From: a virus
Reading direction: 5' to 3' (one strand)
UHGV virus genome: UHGV-0086921
Length of the DNA stretch: 18,433 bases
Each line of letters opens with the position of its first letter. Within the stretch, counting starts at the first letter, position 1. The translations under genes and the position numbers were made by a program. This document shows positions 6,017 to 18,433 of the stretch, piece after piece. Below the pieces are notes generated by a model, which worked only from the letters and a program-made list of their open reading frames with translations, was not told where the DNA came from and made no database searches.

Positions 6017-6139
6017 GCTGTTTTCCTTTAGATGTGAGCCTGTCGTACAGGAACGCCGCCCGAGAGAGGTCGCCACCTTTAACGGCGTTCCTCAGGCTCA
6101 CGACTGAAAGACTCTCGATGGTTTGCGTGTACGATACGC

Positions 6140-6170
6140 ATAAAAAAGCCCCGCTATTGCGAGGCTCTTG
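6140..6170 (-). terminator. Putative intrinsic terminator downstream of the lysis cassette
   Basis: On the minus strand, a GCCTCGC...GCGGGGC hairpin followed by TTTTTT, overlapping the end of the Rz1 reading frame. Confidence 0.4.
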
Positions 6171-6417
6171 ATGATTCGATTTTCCTGATTGCTGCCTTAT
6201 CCAGATTGCACTGCCCCAGCGCCGTGTAGAGCTGAGCGTTTAACTCCAGACTTGCCTGCCACGTGAACGGAACCGTCATTCCGGGGATCGGCGTGTCAGC
6301 TGTCAGGTCAGCGCTTATCGGCACCACCGGGGCCGGAACGTAAACTGTTTTGGTATTCCCGCAGGCTGTCAGCAGCGGCAGCAGGAACAAGCTGGTTAGC
6401 ACACGGATCGCCTTCAA
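6154..6417 (-). CDS. Rz1: o-spanin (Rz1-like outer-membrane lipoprotein), overlapped architecture
   Basis: Alternate frame overlapping the 3' part of Rz encodes a lipoprotein signal with lipobox (…[22 protein letters not shown]…) followed by a Pro-rich segment. Start is probably a TTG (giving [19 protein letters not shown]); the first in-frame ATG would put the start at 6477. Confidence 0.55.
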
Positions 6418-8437: not shown

Positions 8438-9061
8438 CTAACGTGTGACCGCATTCAAAATATTGTCTGCGATTGACTCTTCCTTGTGGCATTGCACCAC
8501 CAGAGCGTCATACAGCGGCTTAACAGTGCGTGACCAGGTGGGTTGGGTAAGGTTTGGGATTAGCATCGTCACAGCGCGATATGCTGCGCTTGCTGGCATC
8601 CTTGAATAGCCGACGCCTTTGCATCTTCCGCACTCTTTCTCGACAACTCTCCCCCACTGCTCTGTTTTGGCTATATCAACCGCACGGCCTGTACCGTGGC
8701 AATCTCTGCATCTTGCGCCCGGCGTCGCGGCACTACGGCAATAATCCGCATAAGCGAATGTTGCGAGCACTTGCAGTACCTTTGCCTTAGTATTTCCTTC
8801 AAGTTTTGCAACGCCACGGTATTTCCCCGATACCTTGTGTGCAAATTGCATCAGATAGTTGATAGCCTTTTGTTTGTCGTTCTGGCTGAGTTCATGCTTA
8901 CCGCAGAATGCAGCCATTCCGAATCCGGCTTGTGATTGCGCCATCCCCATAGCAGCCATCACATCAGTACCGGAAAGAGAGTCAGAAGCCGTAGCCCGTG
9001 GTGAGTCGCTCATCATCGGGCTTTTTGGCGAATGAAATTTAGCTACGCTTTCGAGTCTCAT
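8438..9061 (-). CDS. Q: Late-gene antiterminator Q
   Basis: 207 aa MRLESVAKFHSPKSPMMSDSPRATASDSLSGTDVMAAMGMAQSQAGFGMAAFCGKHELS..., essentially lambda Q as I recall it. Confidence 0.95.
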   Translation of the reverse strand: MRLESVAKFHSPKSPMMSDSPRATASDSLSGTDVMAAMGMAQSQAGFGMAAFCGKHELSQNDKQKAINYLMQFAHKVSGKYRGVAKLEGNTKAKVLQVLATFAYADYCRSAATPGARCRDCHGTGRAVDIAKTEQWGRVVEKECGRCKGVGYSRMPASAAYRAVTMLIPNLTQPTWSRTVKPLYDALVVQCHKEESIADNILNAVTR

Positions 9062-12444: not shown

Positions 12445-12481
12445 GACTTCCCTCTCCCCCAAATAAAAAGGCCTGCGATTA

Positions 12482-12511
12482 CCAGCAGGCCTGTTATTAG
12501 CTCAGTGATGT
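12482..12511 (-). terminator. tR2-like intrinsic terminator between the replication and nin modules
   Basis: Minus strand: 7-8 bp perfect stem (GGCCTGC / GCAGGCC) with an 8 nt loop, followed directly by TTTTTATTTGG. Same position as tR2 in lambda. Confidence 0.6.
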
Positions 12512-12520
12512 AGATGGTCA

Positions 12521-13957
12521 TCAGAATCCCCCTTTCTTCTTGGACTGCGGTTCCTTGCGTTCACGGCGGCGAATTTCAGCAGACTGTTGGTCTGTGTCAT
12601 AAATAGCGCCATTTGCCTGAATGCAATACACCGTACCGGTATTGCCATGACGATTGAGACGAAGGATTAGTTCGGTTTCACCAGGTGGAACACTGTCATC
12701 AAAAGCGCCTTCACGATGGATCCCAACCCAATAATCGCAATCCTGTTCAATCTGCCCTGTATCTCGTGAGTCACTTGGTAATGGGCGTTTATTGGTTCGG
12801 CTTTCCAGTGCGCGGTTAAGCTGCGTCAGAAGCACAACAACGCAATCAAGCTCTTTGGCAAGGTTCTTCAGTCCTTTGGTGATCATGCCGTAAGCAAGGT
12901 CGTTGCGATCGGCCTTCTCAGCGGTCATTAGTGTCAGGTAATCGACCAGAATCATGCCAACACATCCTTTTTCTCGCTTGATTCGACGGCTTTCGCTGAC
13001 GATTTGAGCCAGAGATAATCCCGGCGTGTCGTCGATGTAAAGCATGTCGATTTCACTCAAGCGATTAGCTGTTTCGATCGCCCTGTTGAAGGCACCATCG
13101 TAATCACCCTGATAGCCGTCATCAGCGTCATTTGTCGCCGGAAGGTAAAAAATATTCGGGTTAACACCAGACTTCTGCCCTACCAGTTTTTCCAGTATCT
13201 GATCACCTGGCATTTCAAGGCTGAACATCAAAGCGGGCTTTTTCTCATGCACTGCGCAATTGATTGCCATCTGGCTGTATAGCGTCGTTTTCCCCATCTT
13301 AGGGCGAGCGCCAATGACAAACAGAGAGCCTTTCACCAGACCTTTCGGTGACAGCATCCTGTCCAGCGATGGGATCCCTGTGCTCATTCCCCGTTGTTCG
13401 CCTGATGGGTCAAATCGCTTCTCAAGGTCGCTAACCCAGTCTTCCATGACCTCACCAAATGAACGAAGGCCGCGACGCGATCCGGTTTTTGCATGGTCTG
13501 TCAGTTGCGTGAAAATCGCCTGAATAGCTTCGTACTTCTGCGTTGCAGTCATTCCGTTGCGGGAATAGAGCAATTCCGTCGCTTCAGTCATGCGGTTGAT
13601 GGCGTAGCGTTCCATTGCGGTTTCACGAACCTGCATTGCATAGGCAACGATGTTTGCTGCGCTTGGCGTGTTCTTTGCGATCTCAGCGATATAAGCAAAA
13701 CCGCCAACAGACGCCGTTAACGATTTACGCTCCAGTTCATCGAAAAGCGTCAGGCCATCTACTGGCTTTTGCTCCCGGTGCATTCTGGTTATTTCTTCGA
13801 AAAGGATTTTGTGTGGTCGGCCGTAAAATGAATCAGGCTTCAGCATCGCCAGAACTTTCCGGACGCGCTCACTGCTGTCATCATCCAGAAGCAATCCACC
13901 AATCACCGCCTGCTCTGCCTCGATGCTATGGGGCGGCGCATAAAAATTATCGGTCAT
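12521..13957 (-). CDS. Replicative DNA helicase, DnaB family (P22 gp12-type)
   Basis: About 478 aa with Walker A GARPKMGKT, Walker B MILVDYL, and the DnaB-like N-terminal domain (IEAEQAVIGGLLLD). Preferred start MTDNFYAPP; overlaps the upstream gene stop. Confidence 0.9.
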   Translation of the reverse strand: MTDNFYAPPHSIEAEQAVIGGLLLDDDSSERVRKVLAMLKPDSFYGRPHKILFEEITRMHREQKPVDGLTLFDELERKSLTASVGGFAYIAEIAKNTPSAANIVAYAMQVRETAMERYAINRMTEATELLYSRNGMTATQKYEAIQAIFTQLTDHAKTGSRRGLRSFGEVMEDWVSDLEKRFDPSGEQRGMSTGIPSLDRMLSPKGLVKGSLFVIGARPKMGKTTLYSQMAINCAVHEKKPALMFSLEMPGDQILEKLVGQKSGVNPNIFYLPATNDADDGYQGDYDGAFNRAIETANRLSEIDMLYIDDTPGLSLAQIVSESRRIKREKGCVGMILVDYLTLMTAEKADRNDLAYGMITKGLKNLAKELDCVVVLLTQLNRALESRTNKRPLPSDSRDTGQIEQDCDYWVGIHREGAFDDSVPPGETELILRLNRHGNTGTVYCIQANGAIYDTDQQSAEIRRRERKEPQSKKKGGF

Positions 13958-14846
13958 CGTGTTCACCCTCACGAACTTTCAGGTAGGTATTATCGTTAAG
14001 CAGGAAATCAAATCCCTTTTTGTGCCAGACGGTTCCGCGCTGATGGTTTGGGCGCTCTTCGAACATCCATCGGCAATTTTCGCCTACGTAGCTCAAATAA
14101 TTTCTCCAGTCCTGCATCGTGAAACCATGCCCGTCAAGCTGTCGGGTTATCACTCCGGCTTTGCGCCAGAACGTTCGGATCTGGTTTTTACGCTTGTCAT
14201 TCAGTGCGCGGATTCTTGGCGCTTCAGGAAGGATTTCGTGGTAAGCATCGACAACATCCTGACAGCTGACGGAAGGTTTTTTCTTGTCAGACTTTTTGTC
14301 TGCTGTGGCACTCTCTAATACGTCAGTATTAGAGATAATATTATTATATTCTTTATCTGTGGTAATTTGCTGGTAATCTGCTGGTACAGTATTGCTTGCA
14401 GGCATTGGTATTGCTGGCTTTGAGGTGGTAATTTGCTGGTAATCTGCTGGTACAAAATTTGACTGATAATCGTCATATTTCTCTACCGAGAAAACTGAGA
14501 ATTTACCGTGTGAAACCCAGTCAATCATGCCGAGTTTTTTGAACTTTCTAAGCAGGTACTGAACGCGATCTGGTTTGAGTCCTGTTTCAAACGCCAGAGT
14601 ATTTCTACCGCCAAGTAGCTTCCCTCTGCCTACCAGAATTTCTCCTGCGTCAGTCATTACATACTCAGGCGTATGCTTTGCTTTGAGGATTAAGTGAACC
14701 CACAGATGCGCAGTTTCTGCGTCCTTGTAAAACGGCACATCCATAATTTTACGGTGCAGCAAGGCATACCCCTTACCGCTGCTTTGATGCGGTTGTTGTA
14801 GCCTTCTGGCCTCTCTGGCTTCGGCTAGATTAGATATGTTACTCAT
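13947..14846 (-). CDS. Replication initiation protein (O-like / P22 gp18-like), with origin iterons inside the gene
   Basis: 299 aa ORF directly upstream of the helicase gene. It contains tandem peptide repeats ([10 protein letters not shown] x2) encoded by DNA direct repeats, the hallmark of lambdoid initiators whose ori lies within the gene. Confidence 0.75.
14355..14455. repeat. Origin-of-replication iteron array inside the initiator gene
   Basis: Two roughly 30 bp direct repeats GTGGTAATTTGCTGGTAATCTGCTGGTACA (about 14358-14389 and 14423-14454) built from CTGGTAAT-type sub-repeats, flanked by an AT-rich stretch around 14320-14360. Confidence 0.55.
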
Positions 14847-14985
14847 GACCTTTCTCCTTCTGCATCAGCTTCACTTTTTCCAACTCAGCCCGGAATCGAC
14901 CAGGCTGCTTGAAGCTGGACAGGAAGCGATCACGTAGTATGTGTTTGTGAATTTTGTCCTGGTAAGGACTGAGTTGTTTTGTCAT
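14839..14985 (-). CDS. Small hypothetical protein (48 aa) between cII and the initiator gene
   Basis: Hand translation: [48 protein letters not shown], with an AGGAG RBS 5 nt upstream. Its stop overlaps the initiator start. No recognised family. Confidence 0.35.
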
Positions 14986-14989
14986 AATG

Positions 14990-15062
14990 ACTCCTGTTGA
15001 TAGATCCAGTCTTTCTACATCAGGCCTCGAAGAATTCGCCGTTCTTCGGGGCTTTTTCTTTT
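14990..15062 (+). ncRNA. oop-like antisense RNA (terminator well supported; promoter tentative)
   Basis: Plus-strand intrinsic terminator at about 15024-15062: 11 bp stem GCCTCGAAGAA / TTCTTCGGGGC followed by TTTTTCTTTT, antisense to and overlapping the cII 3' end, exactly as lambda oop does. Candidate -10 CATAAT at about 14983-14988. Confidence 0.45.
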
Positions 15063-15298
15063 GTCAGCATTCTGGCTACTTTCTTAGCCAGTTCCGCCAA
15101 CTCCTCGTCTTCAACACCCCATTCAAGAACAGCCAGAAGCATTCCCATTTTTGGGATGAAGCTGTCTTTCCATCGCGAAATTTGCGATTCATTAATCCCT
15201 AACGCGTCGGCAACCTTTCGCTGACCACGTACAGCAATTCGATTCAGGATGTTGCTTGTAATTGCATTCGCTTTCTTGCGAGTACTTGTAAGTTGCAT
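15020..15298 (-). CDS. cII: Transcriptional activator CII
   Basis: 92 aa from [62 protein letters not shown]..., with the lambda CII signature ([25 protein letters not shown]). The translation-initiation region AAGGAAATACTTACAT-ATG is lambda-like. Confidence 0.85.
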
Positions 15299-15356
15299 AT
15301 GTAAGTATTTCCTTAACAAATAAGAAGTTATGCGCATCAAATTATGCGCGTTGTAT

Positions 15357-15400
15357 TCCCGCATTTCGGCGGGAATGAGGACCATGACTGTTAAAGAGCG
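15357..15400 (-). promoter_or_regulatory. nutR (boxA + boxB) N-utilisation site
   Basis: On the minus transcript, boxA CGCTCTTTAACAG is followed by the boxB hairpin UCCCGC-CGAAAU-GCGGGA, immediately downstream of cro. An identical boxB is present in nutL. Confidence 0.6.
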
Positions 15401-15408
15401 GGTACTGC

Positions 15409-15627
15409 TTAGGCGGCTTTGTTACTGGATGGAGGGAAAACATCATCCAAAGAACATTGGCACCCTAACTTCCTGAGGCCTTCTACGATCATTCGGCAAT
15501 CGTTAAGGCCAGGAGTACGGATATTCAGCTCATAGTTGGCGATGCGGGATTGCCCCCAACCAATTGCTGAAGCTAGTACAGCTTGCGAAACTCCGATTTT
15601 TTTTCGCTGCTGGGCAATTTTGTTCAT
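15409..15627 (-). CDS. cro: Cro-like HTH repressor (434/P22-type Cro)
   Basis: 72 aa from MNKIAQQRKKIGVSQAVLASAIGWGQSRIANYELN... (HTH_XRE-like), with a GGGAGA RBS. It is the first gene transcribed from the pR-like promoter, divergent from cI. Confidence 0.8.
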   Translation of the reverse strand: MNKIAQQRKKIGVSQAVLASAIGWGQSRIANYELNIRTPGLNDCRMIVEGLRKLGCQCSLDDVFPPSSNKAA

Positions 15628-15639
15628 TGCGGTCTCCCT

Positions 15640-15735
15640 AGCATTAATCACACACCCATTACACACAATTTGTGATTAACAGTCAACCTCAATTCGTGTA
15701 CAGAGTTCAATCACGTTGCGTGTTACATTTAAGGG
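15640..15735. promoter_or_regulatory. Right operator/promoter region (OR with pR and pRM)
   Basis: Divergent cI/cro intergenic region. Minus-strand pR reads TTGACT (about 15681-15686), 17 bp spacer, TGTAAT (about 15658-15663). Repeated AATCACA/TGTGATT operator half-sites (TTAATCACA at about 15644; TGTGATTAA at about 15671; AATCACG at about 15709). Possible pRM -10 TACATT ending at the cI ATG, implying a leaderless cI mRNA. Confidence 0.6.
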
Positions 15736-16383
15736 ATGAAAACGATGCATGAAATTATCGGGGAAAGGATCAAGTCCCTTAGAGAAGCTAAAGGACTTAG
15801 CCAGGCTCAATTGGCCAAGCTTTGCGGCTGGGCTGCGCCTTCACGCCTGGGGAACTACGAGTTAGGAACAAGAAAGGTTAGCGCGGATGACGCGCTGGTT
15901 CTTGGGGCGGCACTCGGCGTATCTCCGGCAAAAATAATGTTTGGCGAGGATTCAGACGCCGTATTTCGCCAATATGAATACCCGTTATTTTCTTCAGTGC
16001 AGGCCGGGCCATTTTCGGAGGTGGGAAGCTACACAGCCAGCGATGCAAAGGCATGGGTCCCAACGACCACAAAAGCCAGCGAAAAAGCTTTCTGGCTTGA
16101 GGTGAAGGGGCATTCAATGACGGCGCCTCAGGGGGTTCGTCCAAGTTTTCCGGAAGGCATGCTGATACTCGTTGATCCGGCTGAGCCGGTAGAGTCTGGG
16201 GATTTCTGCGTGGCTTCTGCAAATGGTGATTCAGAGGCAACGTTCAAGAAGTATGAGAAGGATGCAGGGGTTAGTTACCTGGTACCTTTAAACCCGGCAT
16301 ATAGAACACTGGATTGCGACCATAGCTGCCGCATCATAGGCAAGGTAGTTAAGGCGCAGTGGCCTGAAGAGACGTTTGGCTGA
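15736..16383 (+). CDS. cI: CI prophage repressor (LexA-like S24 autopeptidase family)
   Basis: 215 aa with an N-terminal HTH ([12 protein letters not shown]...) and C-terminal S24 features (VKGHSMTAP... Ser nucleophile, and a later Lys in IGKVVK). An in-frame alternative start at 15745 has an AAGGG RBS. Confidence 0.9.
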
Positions 16384-16533
16384 TCGGCAAGGTGTTCTGG
16401 TCGGCGCATAGCTGGTGAAAAAATTATTTAATGCGGTGTATTGGCTGATTGTAACCCCATGTAACATCTTGCCGTCACCATTTCGGTGGTTAGATTTTTA
16501 ATAAAAAAAAACAAATGTATAGCAAGGTTTTTT

Positions 16534-17013
16534 ATGGATAAAATTAATTACCCACCCCTGTTTGAGCCAGGGTTCCATGACATGGATGAAGCTGGATTAA
16601 AATCGTATTGTGTCGATTGCTTTCCTTCATCATCCAGGCGAGGCATGCTATACTGTAATTTTATACAGCTACTCGAATCTATTCGAGAATTATCTGCTCA
16701 ATATGGCTGTTTTACAGAAATATGGGTTGATGGTTCATACACCACGTCTAAACCAGAGCCTGATGATATTGATATTTTGTTGGTATGTGACTATAGCAAT
16801 ATAAACTCAATACCTGTCATGCTTCGGGGCCGCGTCGATAATTTGCTTGACCGAAACTACATCAAACAAAACTACAAAATTGATGTCCTACTACTCATGA
16901 AGAATTTAGATGACCCTAACTATGATTATGAGTACTGGCGTAGCTACTGGCGCGGTTGGTTTGGTTTTGATCGCAGTGAAAACCCGAAAGGGTTAGTGAG
17001 GATTTTTTTATGA
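16534..17013 (+). CDS. Predicted minimal nucleotidyltransferase-fold protein (Pol-beta superfamily-like), cargo gene A
   Basis: 159 aa from MDKINYPPLF... (the track ORF starts at an upstream GTG in an A/T run, less likely). Motif EIWVDGSYTTSKPEPDDIDILLV fits the NTase GS-x(9-13)-DxD signature. AAGG RBS; AT-rich codon usage unlike the surrounding phage genes. Confidence 0.55.
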   Translation: MDKINYPPLFEPGFHDMDEAGLKSYCVDCFPSSSRRGMLYCNFIQLLESIRELSAQYGCFTEIWVDGSYTTSKPEPDDIDILLVCDYSNINSIPVMLRGRVDNLLDRNYIKQNYKIDVLLLMKNLDDPNYDYEYWRSYWRGWFGFDRSENPKGLVRIFL

Positions 17014-17942
17014 ATGATAAATCAATGTTTAAAAATTGCGATAAACGCATTGATTTCATTCAAAAAGAAGTCGATGCAATGAAGCAAAACAAAACCAGGT
17101 CCTTTGCTGACATGCTTCTTTATCGCTCCATGGATTCTCATCTGAGCGATTTGAAGGCCGAAAAATTAAAGCAAGATAGTCGGCACCCACTTATCGATTT
17201 TTTTGAGCTGCGGCTGAAAGGCTCTGAGGTTGACTTTGGCTCTATTCCTTTAGAGCTGCTTGGGGCTATTTCAACAAATCTTGCAGCGCTAATACAAAGA
17301 GCAACACACAAAATTGCCTCAGGCAAGGACTCAAAAAAAGTTCCCTACGACGTGAAAAGCTCCTTAAACCTCAGGCTGGCTGATTTATCCCCTGGGTCTA
17401 CAAAATTGGGCGTCACCTTCTCTACAGGAATAGCAGAATTAGTAGAAACAGTACCCAGCAAGGCTGTAAAAGGCATATTCGATTTGTTGTTAAGCGATGA
17501 CGACAACAACTTCATGAATCACGTCGCTGAAATTGGATACAATTCCACTGTAAGCCTTAAGAGAATCGTAGAGGAATGCGATAAACACAACTTAACATTT
17601 GATGCAAGTTGGACCGGTCCATTTAGTAATGGCACCAAGGTGGCAACTATTGACTCCAATAAAATTAAGTACTTGGTGAGTAGACTTACATCAACCATTT
17701 CATCCCCTCCCATTACTGAAACGGTTACAGGCGAACTGGTCGTTCTATCCAAATATGGGAAGCTGGAGCTTGATGTTGGTGGTGAACATTTAAAGGCTTC
17801 CTATCCGATTGAAATGCTAGATTTAATACAAAAAAAACACAAGGTCGGACAGATTGTTTCTCTTTTAGTGGAGACTACTGAGATTCACAATGATCGCATA
17901 GGTCTGTACCGTAAAAACCATCTTGTTAAATCGGTTCTTTAA
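17010..17942 (+). CDS. Hypothetical protein (310 aa), cargo gene B, translationally coupled to gene A
   Basis: Its start overlaps the gene A stop (ATGA at 17010-17013). No transmembrane segments are apparent and I recognise no family. AT-rich. Followed by a strong terminator. Confidence 0.6.
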   Translation: MNDKSMFKNCDKRIDFIQKEVDAMKQNKTRSFADMLLYRSMDSHLSDLKAEKLKQDSRHPLIDFFELRLKGSEVDFGSIPLELLGAISTNLAALIQRATHKIASGKDSKKVPYDVKSSLNLRLADLSPGSTKLGVTFSTGIAELVETVPSKAVKGIFDLLLSDDDNNFMNHVAEIGYNSTVSLKRIVEECDKHNLTFDASWTGPFSNGTKVATIDSNKIKYLVSRLTSTISSPPITETVTGELVVLSKYGKLELDVGGEHLKASYPIEMLDLIQKKHKVGQIVSLLVETTEIHNDRIGLYRKNHLVKSVL

Positions 17943-17949
17943 TATCTCA

Positions 17950-17976
17950 CCCGGCCACCGCGCCGGGTTTTTTATT
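17950..17976 (+). terminator. Intrinsic terminator ending the cI-cargo transcript (tIMM-like)
   Basis: CCCGGC-CACCGC-GCCGGG hairpin followed by TTTTTTATT, 8 nt after the gene B stop. Confidence 0.7.
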
Positions 17977-18189
17977 GTCCGCCGATCACTATCAGGACAG
18001 CACCTGCCAGCCGGTCCAAACAATTGATTAAATTACTATAATTCTTAATACAACTCCCATATCCCGCCATCTCGCCACCACCACCTTCGCTCGTTTTTCG
18101 AACTTTTCAGCACCCATCCTGCTGTTGCCACCGACTTAAGTAAGCAAAACCATCGCGGGTAAAACTATTTACACAAAAAAATCATACAC

Positions 18190-18255
18190 ATAACGTGTCA
18201 CACCTTTATTTTACACATTTTGTGATTGACCATTAAATCACAATATGTGACTATC
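18190..18255 (+). promoter_or_regulatory. Left operator/promoter region (OL/pL)
   Basis: Inverted repeat TTGTGATT-N8-AATCACAA (about 18220-18243) shares half-sites with the OR region. Candidate pL is TTGACC (about 18226) with a weak -10 about 17 bp downstream. nutL lies about 50 nt downstream. Confidence 0.5.
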
Positions 18256-18300
18256 ATTTCCATCAGCAGGACGCTGGTAGCCAAACGGAACATATTGGCA

Positions 18301-18342
18301 GGCTCTTTAACATTGATGGGATTGTCCCGCCGAAATGCGGGA
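18301..18342 (+). promoter_or_regulatory. nutL (boxA + boxB)
   Basis: boxA GGCTCTTTAACA and boxB TCCCGCCGAAATGCGGGA on the plus strand; the boxB is the exact reverse complement of the plus-strand sequence at nutR, so both transcripts carry the same hairpin. Confidence 0.6.
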
Positions 18343-18433
18343 ACTGAGTTTAACAAAACAGGAGGTGCCGTAATGGTGCACTAACGCGGTTAGACCGCAG
18401 CCGAAAGGCAATTCAGCAGTAATGATGCTGCCC

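Follow-up and report, generated by a model that had tools for sequence, protein, structure and literature searches.

Probable nutR and nutL sites of the HK620 type on the two early transcripts of a lambdoid prophage

Several lambdoid N/nut systems have been described, and they differ in the boxB hairpin and in the arginine-rich motif of the N protein. The boxB of lambda, GCCCUGAA(A/G)AAGGGC, forms a 5-bp stem with a pentaloop and reads GCCCTGAAAAAGGGC in nutR and GCCCTGAAGAAGGGC in nutL of the lambda record (NC_001416). It is preceded by the boxA CGCUCUUA, and the 107-aa lambda N belongs to a separate Pfam family, N36. The boxA of P22 is CGCUCUUUA, its boxB carries a GACAA pentaloop from which the C is extruded, and its nutL and nutR boxBs are unlike each other. 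Published structures describe GNRA-like folds for the lambda and P22 boxBs and a C·C-closed hexaloop for that of phi21; in the P22 complex, the extruded loop C makes contacts with the N peptide at His7 and Arg11 (PMC12550061). The closest described system is that of HK620 (AF335538), whose nutR and nutL were annotated by the depositors with the boxB UCCCGCCGAAAUGCGGGA and whose N, annotated as an antiterminator, matches the Pfam family PF25694 (N_peptide). This boxB/N combination has been annotated since 2001 and is common, and the site type is already known. The HK620 record notes a resemblance of its N to that of H-19B, which also has a lambdoid N/nut system. H-19B N is a 127-aa protein with the motif 12-RSRRRER-18 (PMC3526286), a type different from NARNRRRARR, which ruled out an assignment of the N considered here as H-19B-type.

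The 18,433-nt stretch of viral DNA analyzed here (the window) contains exactly two copies of the 19-mer TCCCGCCGAAATGCGGGAA, one at 15356-15374 on the minus strand and one at 18325-18343 on the plus strand. The two copies form an inverted pair with 100% complementarity, and none of 200 dinucleotide shuffles contained any match at two or fewer mismatches. Repeat and fold analyses delimited the corresponding boxB hairpins as UUCCCGC-CGAAAU-GCGGGAA at 15356..15375 (-) and UCCCGC-CGAAAU-GCGGGAA at 18325..18343 (+), which are the same as the annotated HK620 nutR and nutL, respectively. Each hairpin is preceded by the boxA core GCTCTTTAACA (15389-15399, minus strand; 18302-18312, plus strand). The complete boxA is CGCTCTTTAACA at 15389..15400 (-), equal to the HK620 nutR boxA, and GGCTCTTTAACA at 18301..18312 (+), equal to that of HK620 nutL; the spacer to the hairpin measures 14 nt in nutR and 12 nt in nutL. 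Lambda and P22 are arranged likewise, with a boxA shortly before the hairpin. With the flanking spacer included, both sites match those of HK620 base for base. The initial annotation had placed a boxA and an identical boxB on both early transcripts, and its coordinates and both of its strings proved correct. When read in the sense of their own transcripts, the two boxB copies are identical, asymmetric loop included, as expected of an RNA element and not of a DNA element. We estimate a probability of about 90% that these hairpins are the nutR and nutL of a lambdoid prophage with antitermination of the HK620 type.

The position and orientation of both elements agree with this reading. nutR lies between a cro-like repressor gene of 72 aa (15409..15627, minus strand; Pfam HTH_3, 8.8e-08; cro or antirepressor in the mEpX1 and VT1-Sakai annotations) and cII, the first gene downstream of it (15020..15310, minus strand; Pfam Phage_CII, 2.1e-42). 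nutL follows the cI operon, about 40 nt past the start of pL, and the cI repressor gene, with HTH and S24 peptidase domains according to Pfam, is located between the two sites (15736..16383, plus strand). A sigma-70 consensus scan called neither early promoter, so both were read from the sequence and placed by mapping from the annotation of VT1-Sakai, which is 98.7% identical to the window in the immunity region. The pR promoter occupies 15658..15686 (-), with the -35 element TTGACT, a 17-nt spacer and the -10 element TGTAAT; pL occupies 18226..18254 (+), with TTGACC, a 17-nt spacer and a TG-extended -10 element, GACTAT. The two nut copies are divergent, one on each early transcript and each in the sense orientation, and their layout relative to pR, cro, cII and pL agrees with the annotations of lambda, P22, HK620 and VT1-Sakai. 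The features by which nut sites are recognized were found together: boxA, a GC-rich boxB stem with a purine-rich loop, these positions, a cognate N gene downstream (in the near-identical prophage L299, described below) and covariation with N.

Folding of the isolated hairpin, a check proposed at the outset, predicted a stable structure, a hexaloop CGAAAU on a stem of 6-7 bp (-10.7 kcal/mol, z = -3.0), and within a 71-nt context the z-scores were unremarkable, about -1. By analogy with the phi21 (C-UAAC-C) and P22 nutR (C-GACAA-C) loops, CGAAAU would most likely adopt the fold of a GNRA tetraloop, GAAA, with a noncanonical C·U pair closing it. Rfam searches at gathering thresholds, covering the window and the relative L002, matched no family to the nut sites or to the N leader. 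The architecture is that of lambda, with promoter, boxA, spacer and boxB in the same order and located alike with respect to cro/cII and pL/N, and a Nus-dependent mechanism is presumably common to both systems. The hairpin itself differs from both boxBs in the lambda record, as had been suspected, and the lambda boxA is shorter than that of the window.

The N gene had been predicted to lie beyond the window end, and a rightward extension through prophage L299, whose sequence matches window positions 13510-18433 (4,924 nt) at 99.98% identity, led to an N-like gene downstream of nutL. In L299, an N gene for a 90-aa protein follows; it begins 268 nt after the last position of the window, occupies window-equivalent positions 18701-18973, and encodes the HK620-type arginine-rich motif NARNRRRARRQAQ (Pfam PF25694 N_peptide, 5.1e-15). 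From this near-identical relative, the cognate N of the window itself is predicted to lie just outside it, as an open reading frame of 90-99 aa beginning MTVVITYLADDNARNRRRARR near window-equivalent position 18701. The N-terminal 56 residues of the L299 protein, and by prediction of that of the window, are the same as those of HK620 N. A comparison with the N proteins of phage 21, P22 and lambda, also suggested by the initial annotation, showed that the HK620-type motif has a sequence of its own and fits the pattern A-x-[T/S/N]-R-x-x-x-R-R common to all three; with lambda N, the window-type N has A-x-T/N-RRR-x-RR in common.

These elements suggest how early transcription of the prophage would proceed. 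The leftward pR transcript and the rightward pL transcript would each carry the rrn-like boxA GCUCUUUAACA, followed 12-14 nt later by the hairpin UCCCGC-CGAAAU-GCGGGA. The N protein, whose gene would begin about 270 nt past the end of the window, would presumably bind this hairpin, and the complex, together with NusA and NusG if Nus factors are used as in related systems, would make RNA polymerase resistant to termination. The modified polymerase could then pass tR1, tR2 and leftward terminators, the set overridden being presumed. A tR2-like intrinsic terminator was called by the terminator scan after the helicase gene, at 12469..12492 (-), with an 8-bp stem containing 6 GC pairs followed by TTTTATTT, and HK620 has its tR2 at the equivalent place. 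Since pR drives the cro-nutR-cII-O-P-...-Q transcript, the N-modified polymerase would have to pass this terminator to reach Q; read-through would lead to expression of O, P and Q, and Q expression would thus depend on N. The late system is of the lambda type, as originally noted: Q (8438..9061, minus strand; Pfam Antiterm, 1.3e-57) is identical to lambda Q at 206 of 207 positions, and over the 100 nt directly following it, with the pR' promoter and qut, the identity to lambda is 95%. Our literature search found no experimental data on N-boxB binding or antitermination for the HK620 type. Furthermore, a full-text search for the boxB string as DNA, RNA and reverse complement returned no paper, and a PDB sequence search with HK620 N yielded spurious RNF168 matches only, with no matching solved structure.

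Hairpin and protein were also compared across relatives. Among loci retrieved through N, which span 10 immunity clusters, 59 of 60 nonredundant loci with the HK620 motif carry the window-type boxB at both nutL and nutR; for the phi21 motif, boxBs of the phi21 type stand at both sites in 47 of 48 loci. The type of N motif, HK620 or phi21, therefore predicts the type of boxB at both sites, with no mixed locus in about 107 nonredundant relatives. One immunity cassette of about 1,086 nt was found with both N/boxB types (25 versus 40 loci), so the match between motif and hairpin holds even where the cassette that lies between the sites is the same. The hairpin was expected to be conserved in relatives, and it was invariant in every relative retrieved through N, which means that the covariation is of type against type and not per base pair. 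Two loci, L052/L148 and L089, lack a recognizable nutR boxB despite a cognate nutL, and they may be defective prophages. In the reciprocal set, seeded with boxB, what comes after the hairpin is either cII or an N gene whose motif is of the HK620 type or a near variant of it, never an N with a phi21-, lambda- or P22-type motif, and boxA always precedes the hairpin at a fixed spacing. No record among complete Escherichia coli genomes contained the pL-nutL junction of the window at a coverage of at least 80%.

The comparison with HK620 and with phi21-type phages also bears out the modular mosaicism that had been proposed for this phage. HK620 shares the nut sites, but its immunity region between them is unrelated, with HK620 cI/cro in place of the VT1-Sakai/mEpX1-type cI/cro and two-gene cassette of the window. 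Conversely, mEpX1 (99.4%) and VT1-Sakai (98.7%) share the immunity region, the rrn-like boxA and the layout with the window, but carry the phi21-type boxBs CUCAACCUAACCGUUGAG and CACCUCUAACCGGGUG with a CUAACC hexaloop, which are not found in the window. The N of mEpX1, VT1-Sakai and phage 21 has the central segment ARKIALKLSGCVRADKAASLGS in common with the window-type N, but its motif, GTAKSRYKARRAELIAERR, is unlike that of the window type. Both mEpX1 and the relative L305 combine the immunity region of the window with phi21-type nut sites and N. On the right, the homology of these phi21-type relatives to the window breaks off within the boxA-spacer segment; on the left, it stops where the pL transcript starts. 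The crossovers fall in these short conserved islands. The locus is a clean case of an immunity cassette that lambdoid phages exchange separately from the module for N/nut specificity, and selection keeps both nut sites matched to N although the exchanged cassette separates them. This is ordinary, well-understood shuffling of phage modules and leaves current understanding unchanged. The practical value lies in annotation, as the early antitermination sites are located and the N type of the prophage is predicted.

In place of protein-binding nut sites, the hairpins could in principle be palindromes for DNA binding or recombination that mark module borders, or other generic features of the RNA or DNA, for example RNase III sites or terminators. 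Both are GC-rich inverted repeats and both lie exactly at the mosaic junctions, but neither is followed by a U-tract, and the terminator scan called neither. At both sites, and among the paired matches listed, the asymmetric loop keeps its sense with respect to transcription, boxA is always found 5' of the hairpin at a fixed spacing, and the hairpin type follows the RNA-binding motif of N across a variable intervening immunity region, so we consider a generic feature very improbable. An N-independent antitermination by put-like RNA, as in HK022, comes to mind because much of the window's right arm is HK022-like, with O, P, the nin region and Q at 96%; this homology, however, ends at window position 15010, short of nutR. 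The put element of HK022 is a two-stem RNA of about 65-70 nt without boxA or an N gene, whereas the window combines a boxA with one short hairpin of 19 nt, the 99.98%-identical L299 has an N gene, and no Rfam family was matched. We assign a put-like mechanism a negligible probability.

A closer question is whether HK620-type nut sites, taken as real, differ in specificity from those of P22. Under a shared functional class, the pair would cross-react with P22 N or boxB, and the sites would be non-lambda, as claimed, without having a specificity different from that of P22. The window boxB is close to that of P22 nutR, with a stem and a 5' half of the loop that are almost the same (CCGCC-GA..A-.GCGG; CCGCCGA-AAUGCGG versus CCGCCGACAACGCGG) and, in P22 nutR as in the predicted fold of the window loop, a pyrimidine-pyrimidine pair closing the loop. 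The boxA CGCUCUUUA of P22 is a further point of agreement. P22 gp24 is homologous to HK620 N over its full length (37% identity, E = 1e-14), with an MTV(V)ITY N terminus and a ..YAAG.RKSKQ.TAR C terminus in common, and both motifs fit A-x-[T/N]-R-R-x-x-R-R. Nevertheless, the GACAA pentaloop is not found in the window, where the loop is CGAAAU (GAAA), without the extruded C that contacts His7 and Arg11 of P22 N (PMC12550061). Outside the arginines, the motif sequence differs from that of P22 at most positions (NARNRRRARRQAQREQ versus NAKTRRHERRRKLAIE), the two window boxBs are identical whereas those of P22 are not, and the boxB-seeded set contained no P22-type motif beside a window-type boxB. 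On balance, membership in the P22 class seems to us rather unlikely. We propose, tentatively and with less than even confidence, that the HK620-type pair, composed of the motif NARNRRRARRQAQ and the boxB UCCCGC-C-GAAA-U-GCGGGA, may represent a fourth mode of N-peptide/boxB recognition, with a true GNRA tetraloop and C·U closure, orthogonal to lambda, P22 and phi21. If so, the pair could be used as an additional orthogonal pair for RNA tethering.

Finally, the segment between nutL and N differs from that of HK620, which does not have the noncoding insertion of about 250 nt that relatives carry between the nutL boxB and N. The insertion starts at 18344, and the last 90 nt of the window (18344..18433, plus strand) are, by comparison with relatives and L299, the start of this long N leader. 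No conserved open reading frame was found in it, and a permissive E-value Rfam search of the L163 N leader gave no match. A structured RNA was rejected by a z-score of -1.08 and by a consensus fold in which many pairs were broken and just 4 were compensatory. Speculatively, the conserved noncoding insertion could be a regulatory leader RNA controlling N. The 21-mer GGAGGTGCCGTAATGGTGCAC was found in 24 distinct stretches, all with the HK620 loop and 3' arm directly upstream and 23 with the hairpin intact, and all 20 stretches reaching far enough encode an N with the HK620 motif 420-626 nt downstream.

The window contains exactly two copies of the 19-mer TCCCGCCGAAATGCGGGAA, at 15356-15374 on the minus strand and at 18325-18343 on the plus strand, and shuffled sequence gave no match (0 of 200 shuffles). 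In the transcript that carries it, each copy follows GCTCTTTAACA, at a distance of 14 nt (minus-strand copy) or 12 nt (plus-strand copy). The initial annotation, which had described a boxA followed by the same boxB hairpin at both sites, was correct in coordinates and sequences. In isolation, the hairpin folds at -10.7 kcal/mol (z = -3.0), with a stem of 6-7 bp and the loop CGAAAU. Both sites have the long, rrn-like boxA that also occurs in the phi21-type relatives; in lambda imm21, boxA does not differ from that of E. coli rrn (PMC3177189). In contrast, the lambda record has a shorter boxA, CGCTCTTA, and the different boxB hairpins GCCCTGAAAAAGGGC and GCCCTGAAGAAGGGC. In coliphage HK620 (AF335538), the annotated nutR and nutL agree with the two sites at every base, and the match also covers the spacers and the stretch from nutR down to cII. 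The element is therefore already known, being annotated in HK620 and common in enterobacterial prophages.

The window runs in reverse of the conventional lambda map. The rightward operon lies on the minus strand, from the promoter pR (15686-15658) through cro (15627-15409), cII (15310-15020), O (14846-13947), the DnaB-like P (13972-12521) and the nin region to Q (9061-8438), while cI (15736-16383), two more genes and the promoter pL (18226-18254) are on the plus strand. A strong tR2-like intrinsic terminator is found on the rightward transcript just past the helicase gene (12492-12469, minus strand). Additionally, a strong intrinsic terminator with a 14-bp stem (15022-15054, plus strand) lies antisense to the 3' end of cII, the position of oop.

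The initial annotation had also predicted a non-lambda N beyond the window end, and such a gene is present in a near-identical prophage. A public-assembly look-up of the 310-aa protein encoded at 17010-17942 retrieved L299 (CP056396.1), whose sequence has 99.98% identity to window 13510-18433 and extends further. L299 has a 90-aa ORF with its start 268 nt beyond the window (window-equivalent 18701); the protein begins MTVVITYLADDNARNRRRARRQAQREQAMQEQRLARKIALKL and matches PF25694 (5.1e-15). The HK620 N is likewise 90 aa, starts MTVVITYLADDNARNRRRARRQAQREQ and matches this same family, 'Transcriptional antitermination N peptide'. A second line of evidence agrees with L299. The 21-mer GGAGGTGCCGTAATGGTGCAC, which lies within the final 90 nt of the window, was found in 24 distinct stretches, all with the HK620 loop and 3' arm directly upstream; the full hairpin is intact in 23 of them, the exception (L006) having a disrupted 5' arm. 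An N with the HK620 motif follows 420-626 nt downstream in 20/20 stretches long enough.

A terminator, a DNA palindrome and a put-like element were weighed as alternatives, and none of the three fits. A U-tract is absent after the hairpin at both copies, and the asymmetric loop reads the same way along the transcript each time. BoxA accompanies the hairpin, the near-identical prophage has N, and the homology to HK022 ends before nutR.

Reading the sites as nutR and nutL, and by homology with lambda, P22 and phi21, N would bind boxB through its arginine-rich motif and boxA would bind NusB/NusE, and the N complex with NusA and NusG would make RNA polymerase resistant to termination (for background, see PMC3526286 and PMC3177189). 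The modified polymerase would then read through tR1, annotated in HK620 directly after nutR, and through the terminator at 12492-12469, reaching Q. The HK620 motif fits A-x-[T/S/N]-R-x-x-x-R-R, common to lambda, P22 and phi21 N. P22 gp24 is a homologue of HK620 N (37% identity, E 1e-14), and P22 nutR has the closest boxB (CCGCCGACAACGCGG vs CCGCCGA-AAUGCGG); the HK620-type pair may be functionally distinct from that of P22 or may cross-react with it. In P22, GACAA folds as a GNRA loop from which the C is extruded, a GNRA-like fold also occurs in lambda boxB, and the phi21 hexaloop CUAACC forms a tetraloop-like UAAC with a C·C closing pair (PMC12550061). From these folds we infer that C-GAAA-U would be a plain GNRA tetraloop with a C·U closing pair. 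A full-text search for the boxB string and a PDB sequence search with HK620 N found no structure or binding study of the HK620-type pair.

To examine the co-variation of N and boxB, 160 viral-contig loci were collected with the N of HK620 or that of phage VT1-Sakai (phi21-type) as seed. After removal of redundancy, 107 loci and the window remained, and the DNA lying between their two boxA elements was clustered. CCCGCCGAAATGCGGG occurs at both nutL and nutR in 59/60 non-redundant HK620-motif loci, and 47 of the 48 phi21-motif loci have phi21 hairpins at both sites (nutL CTCAACCTAACCGTTGAG, nutR CACCTCTAACCGGGTG); none of these loci mixes the two types. The two exceptions (L052/L148 and L089) have a cognate N and nutL, but no nutR boxB could be recognised downstream of the closest boxA-like match on the rightward side (in L089, this match is a canonical boxA located after cro). 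Defective prophages or a different nutR may account for this. The association is kept across 10 immunity clusters. A cassette of ~1086 nt was found with both types (25 and 40 loci), and the ~2.9 kb cassette of the window accompanies phi21-type N and nut in phage mEpX1 and locus L305 and HK620-type nut in the window. Since nutR lies across the immunity cassette from N, its match is not a matter of physical linkage alone and implies selection for the cognate pair. The reverse test, seeded with the boxB string alone (at least 120 stretches), gave the same answer. Among the boxB matches listed, boxA precedes the hairpin in all but two cases, and what comes after the hairpin is either cII or an N whose motif is of the HK620 type or a near variant of it, one of which, TAKNRRRERRAALRDQ (L199), is more diverged. 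Motifs of the phi21, lambda or P22 type never follow it. The interpretation of the sites as nut elements served by a non-lambda N is supported by HK620 identity, by N in L299 and by this co-variation.

Homology to mEpX1 extends from 15378 to 18319 (99.4%). The right-side joint, where mEpX1-like sequence gives way to HK620-like sequence, lies within a 20-mer common to both, CCGCTCTTTAACAGTCATGG, formed by boxA and the start of the spacer. The left-side joint lies within the shared CCATCAGCAGGACGCTG, just past the pL start, which implies that the whole pL leader, boxA included, travels with N. The N proteins are themselves three-part mosaics (L163 4112-4411, L299 5192-5464, L305 4943-5242 and L004 4477-4749, all related loci), combining an HK620 or phi21 motif, a common middle segment ARKIALKLSGCVRADKAASLGS and a P22-like (..YAAGYRKSKQLTAR) or lambda-like (..GVTCVGRQKMKLGSKPLI) C-terminus, with all four motif/C-terminus combinations seen. 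The late system proved lambda-type, as had been proposed: Q is identical to lambda Q at 206/207 positions, and the first 100 nt downstream, including pR' and qut, share 95% identity with lambda. The element illustrates modular exchange neatly and is not a discovery.

At the position of rexAB, with cI on one side and the tIMM terminator (17949-17968) on the other, lies a two-gene cassette (16357-17987). Its plus-strand ORFs encode a DUF6932 protein (16534-17013) and a 310-aa protein (17010-17942) that matches no Pfam family, and they match parts A (1.8e-41) and B (7.5e-45) of the PADLOC candidate defence system PDC-M63. The block, whose left boundary lies within the last 27 nt of cI, is 99.4-99.6% identical behind repressors of at least five lengths (215-251 aa), including Rac-like prophages, and thus behaves as a mobile moron.

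Directly after the nutL boxB, upstream of N, there is a non-coding insertion of ~250 nt, which begins in the window (18344-18433) and continues in related loci (L299 4835-5090, L163 3549-3803, L002 4599-4852). All its occurrences in the examined loci are beside HK620-type nutL, and its two sequence variants diverge over ~70 nt in the centre. It has no Rfam match and no conserved ORF, and evidence for structure is weak; its start carries a strong Shine-Dalgarno and a 3-codon mini-ORF (AGGAGG..ATG GTG CAC TAA). Downstream of N in L002, a Stx2c phage relative, an Rfam ALIL pseudoknot (IS3-family frameshift element, 120 bits; 6088-6204, minus strand) points to an insertion sequence in that phage, outside the window.
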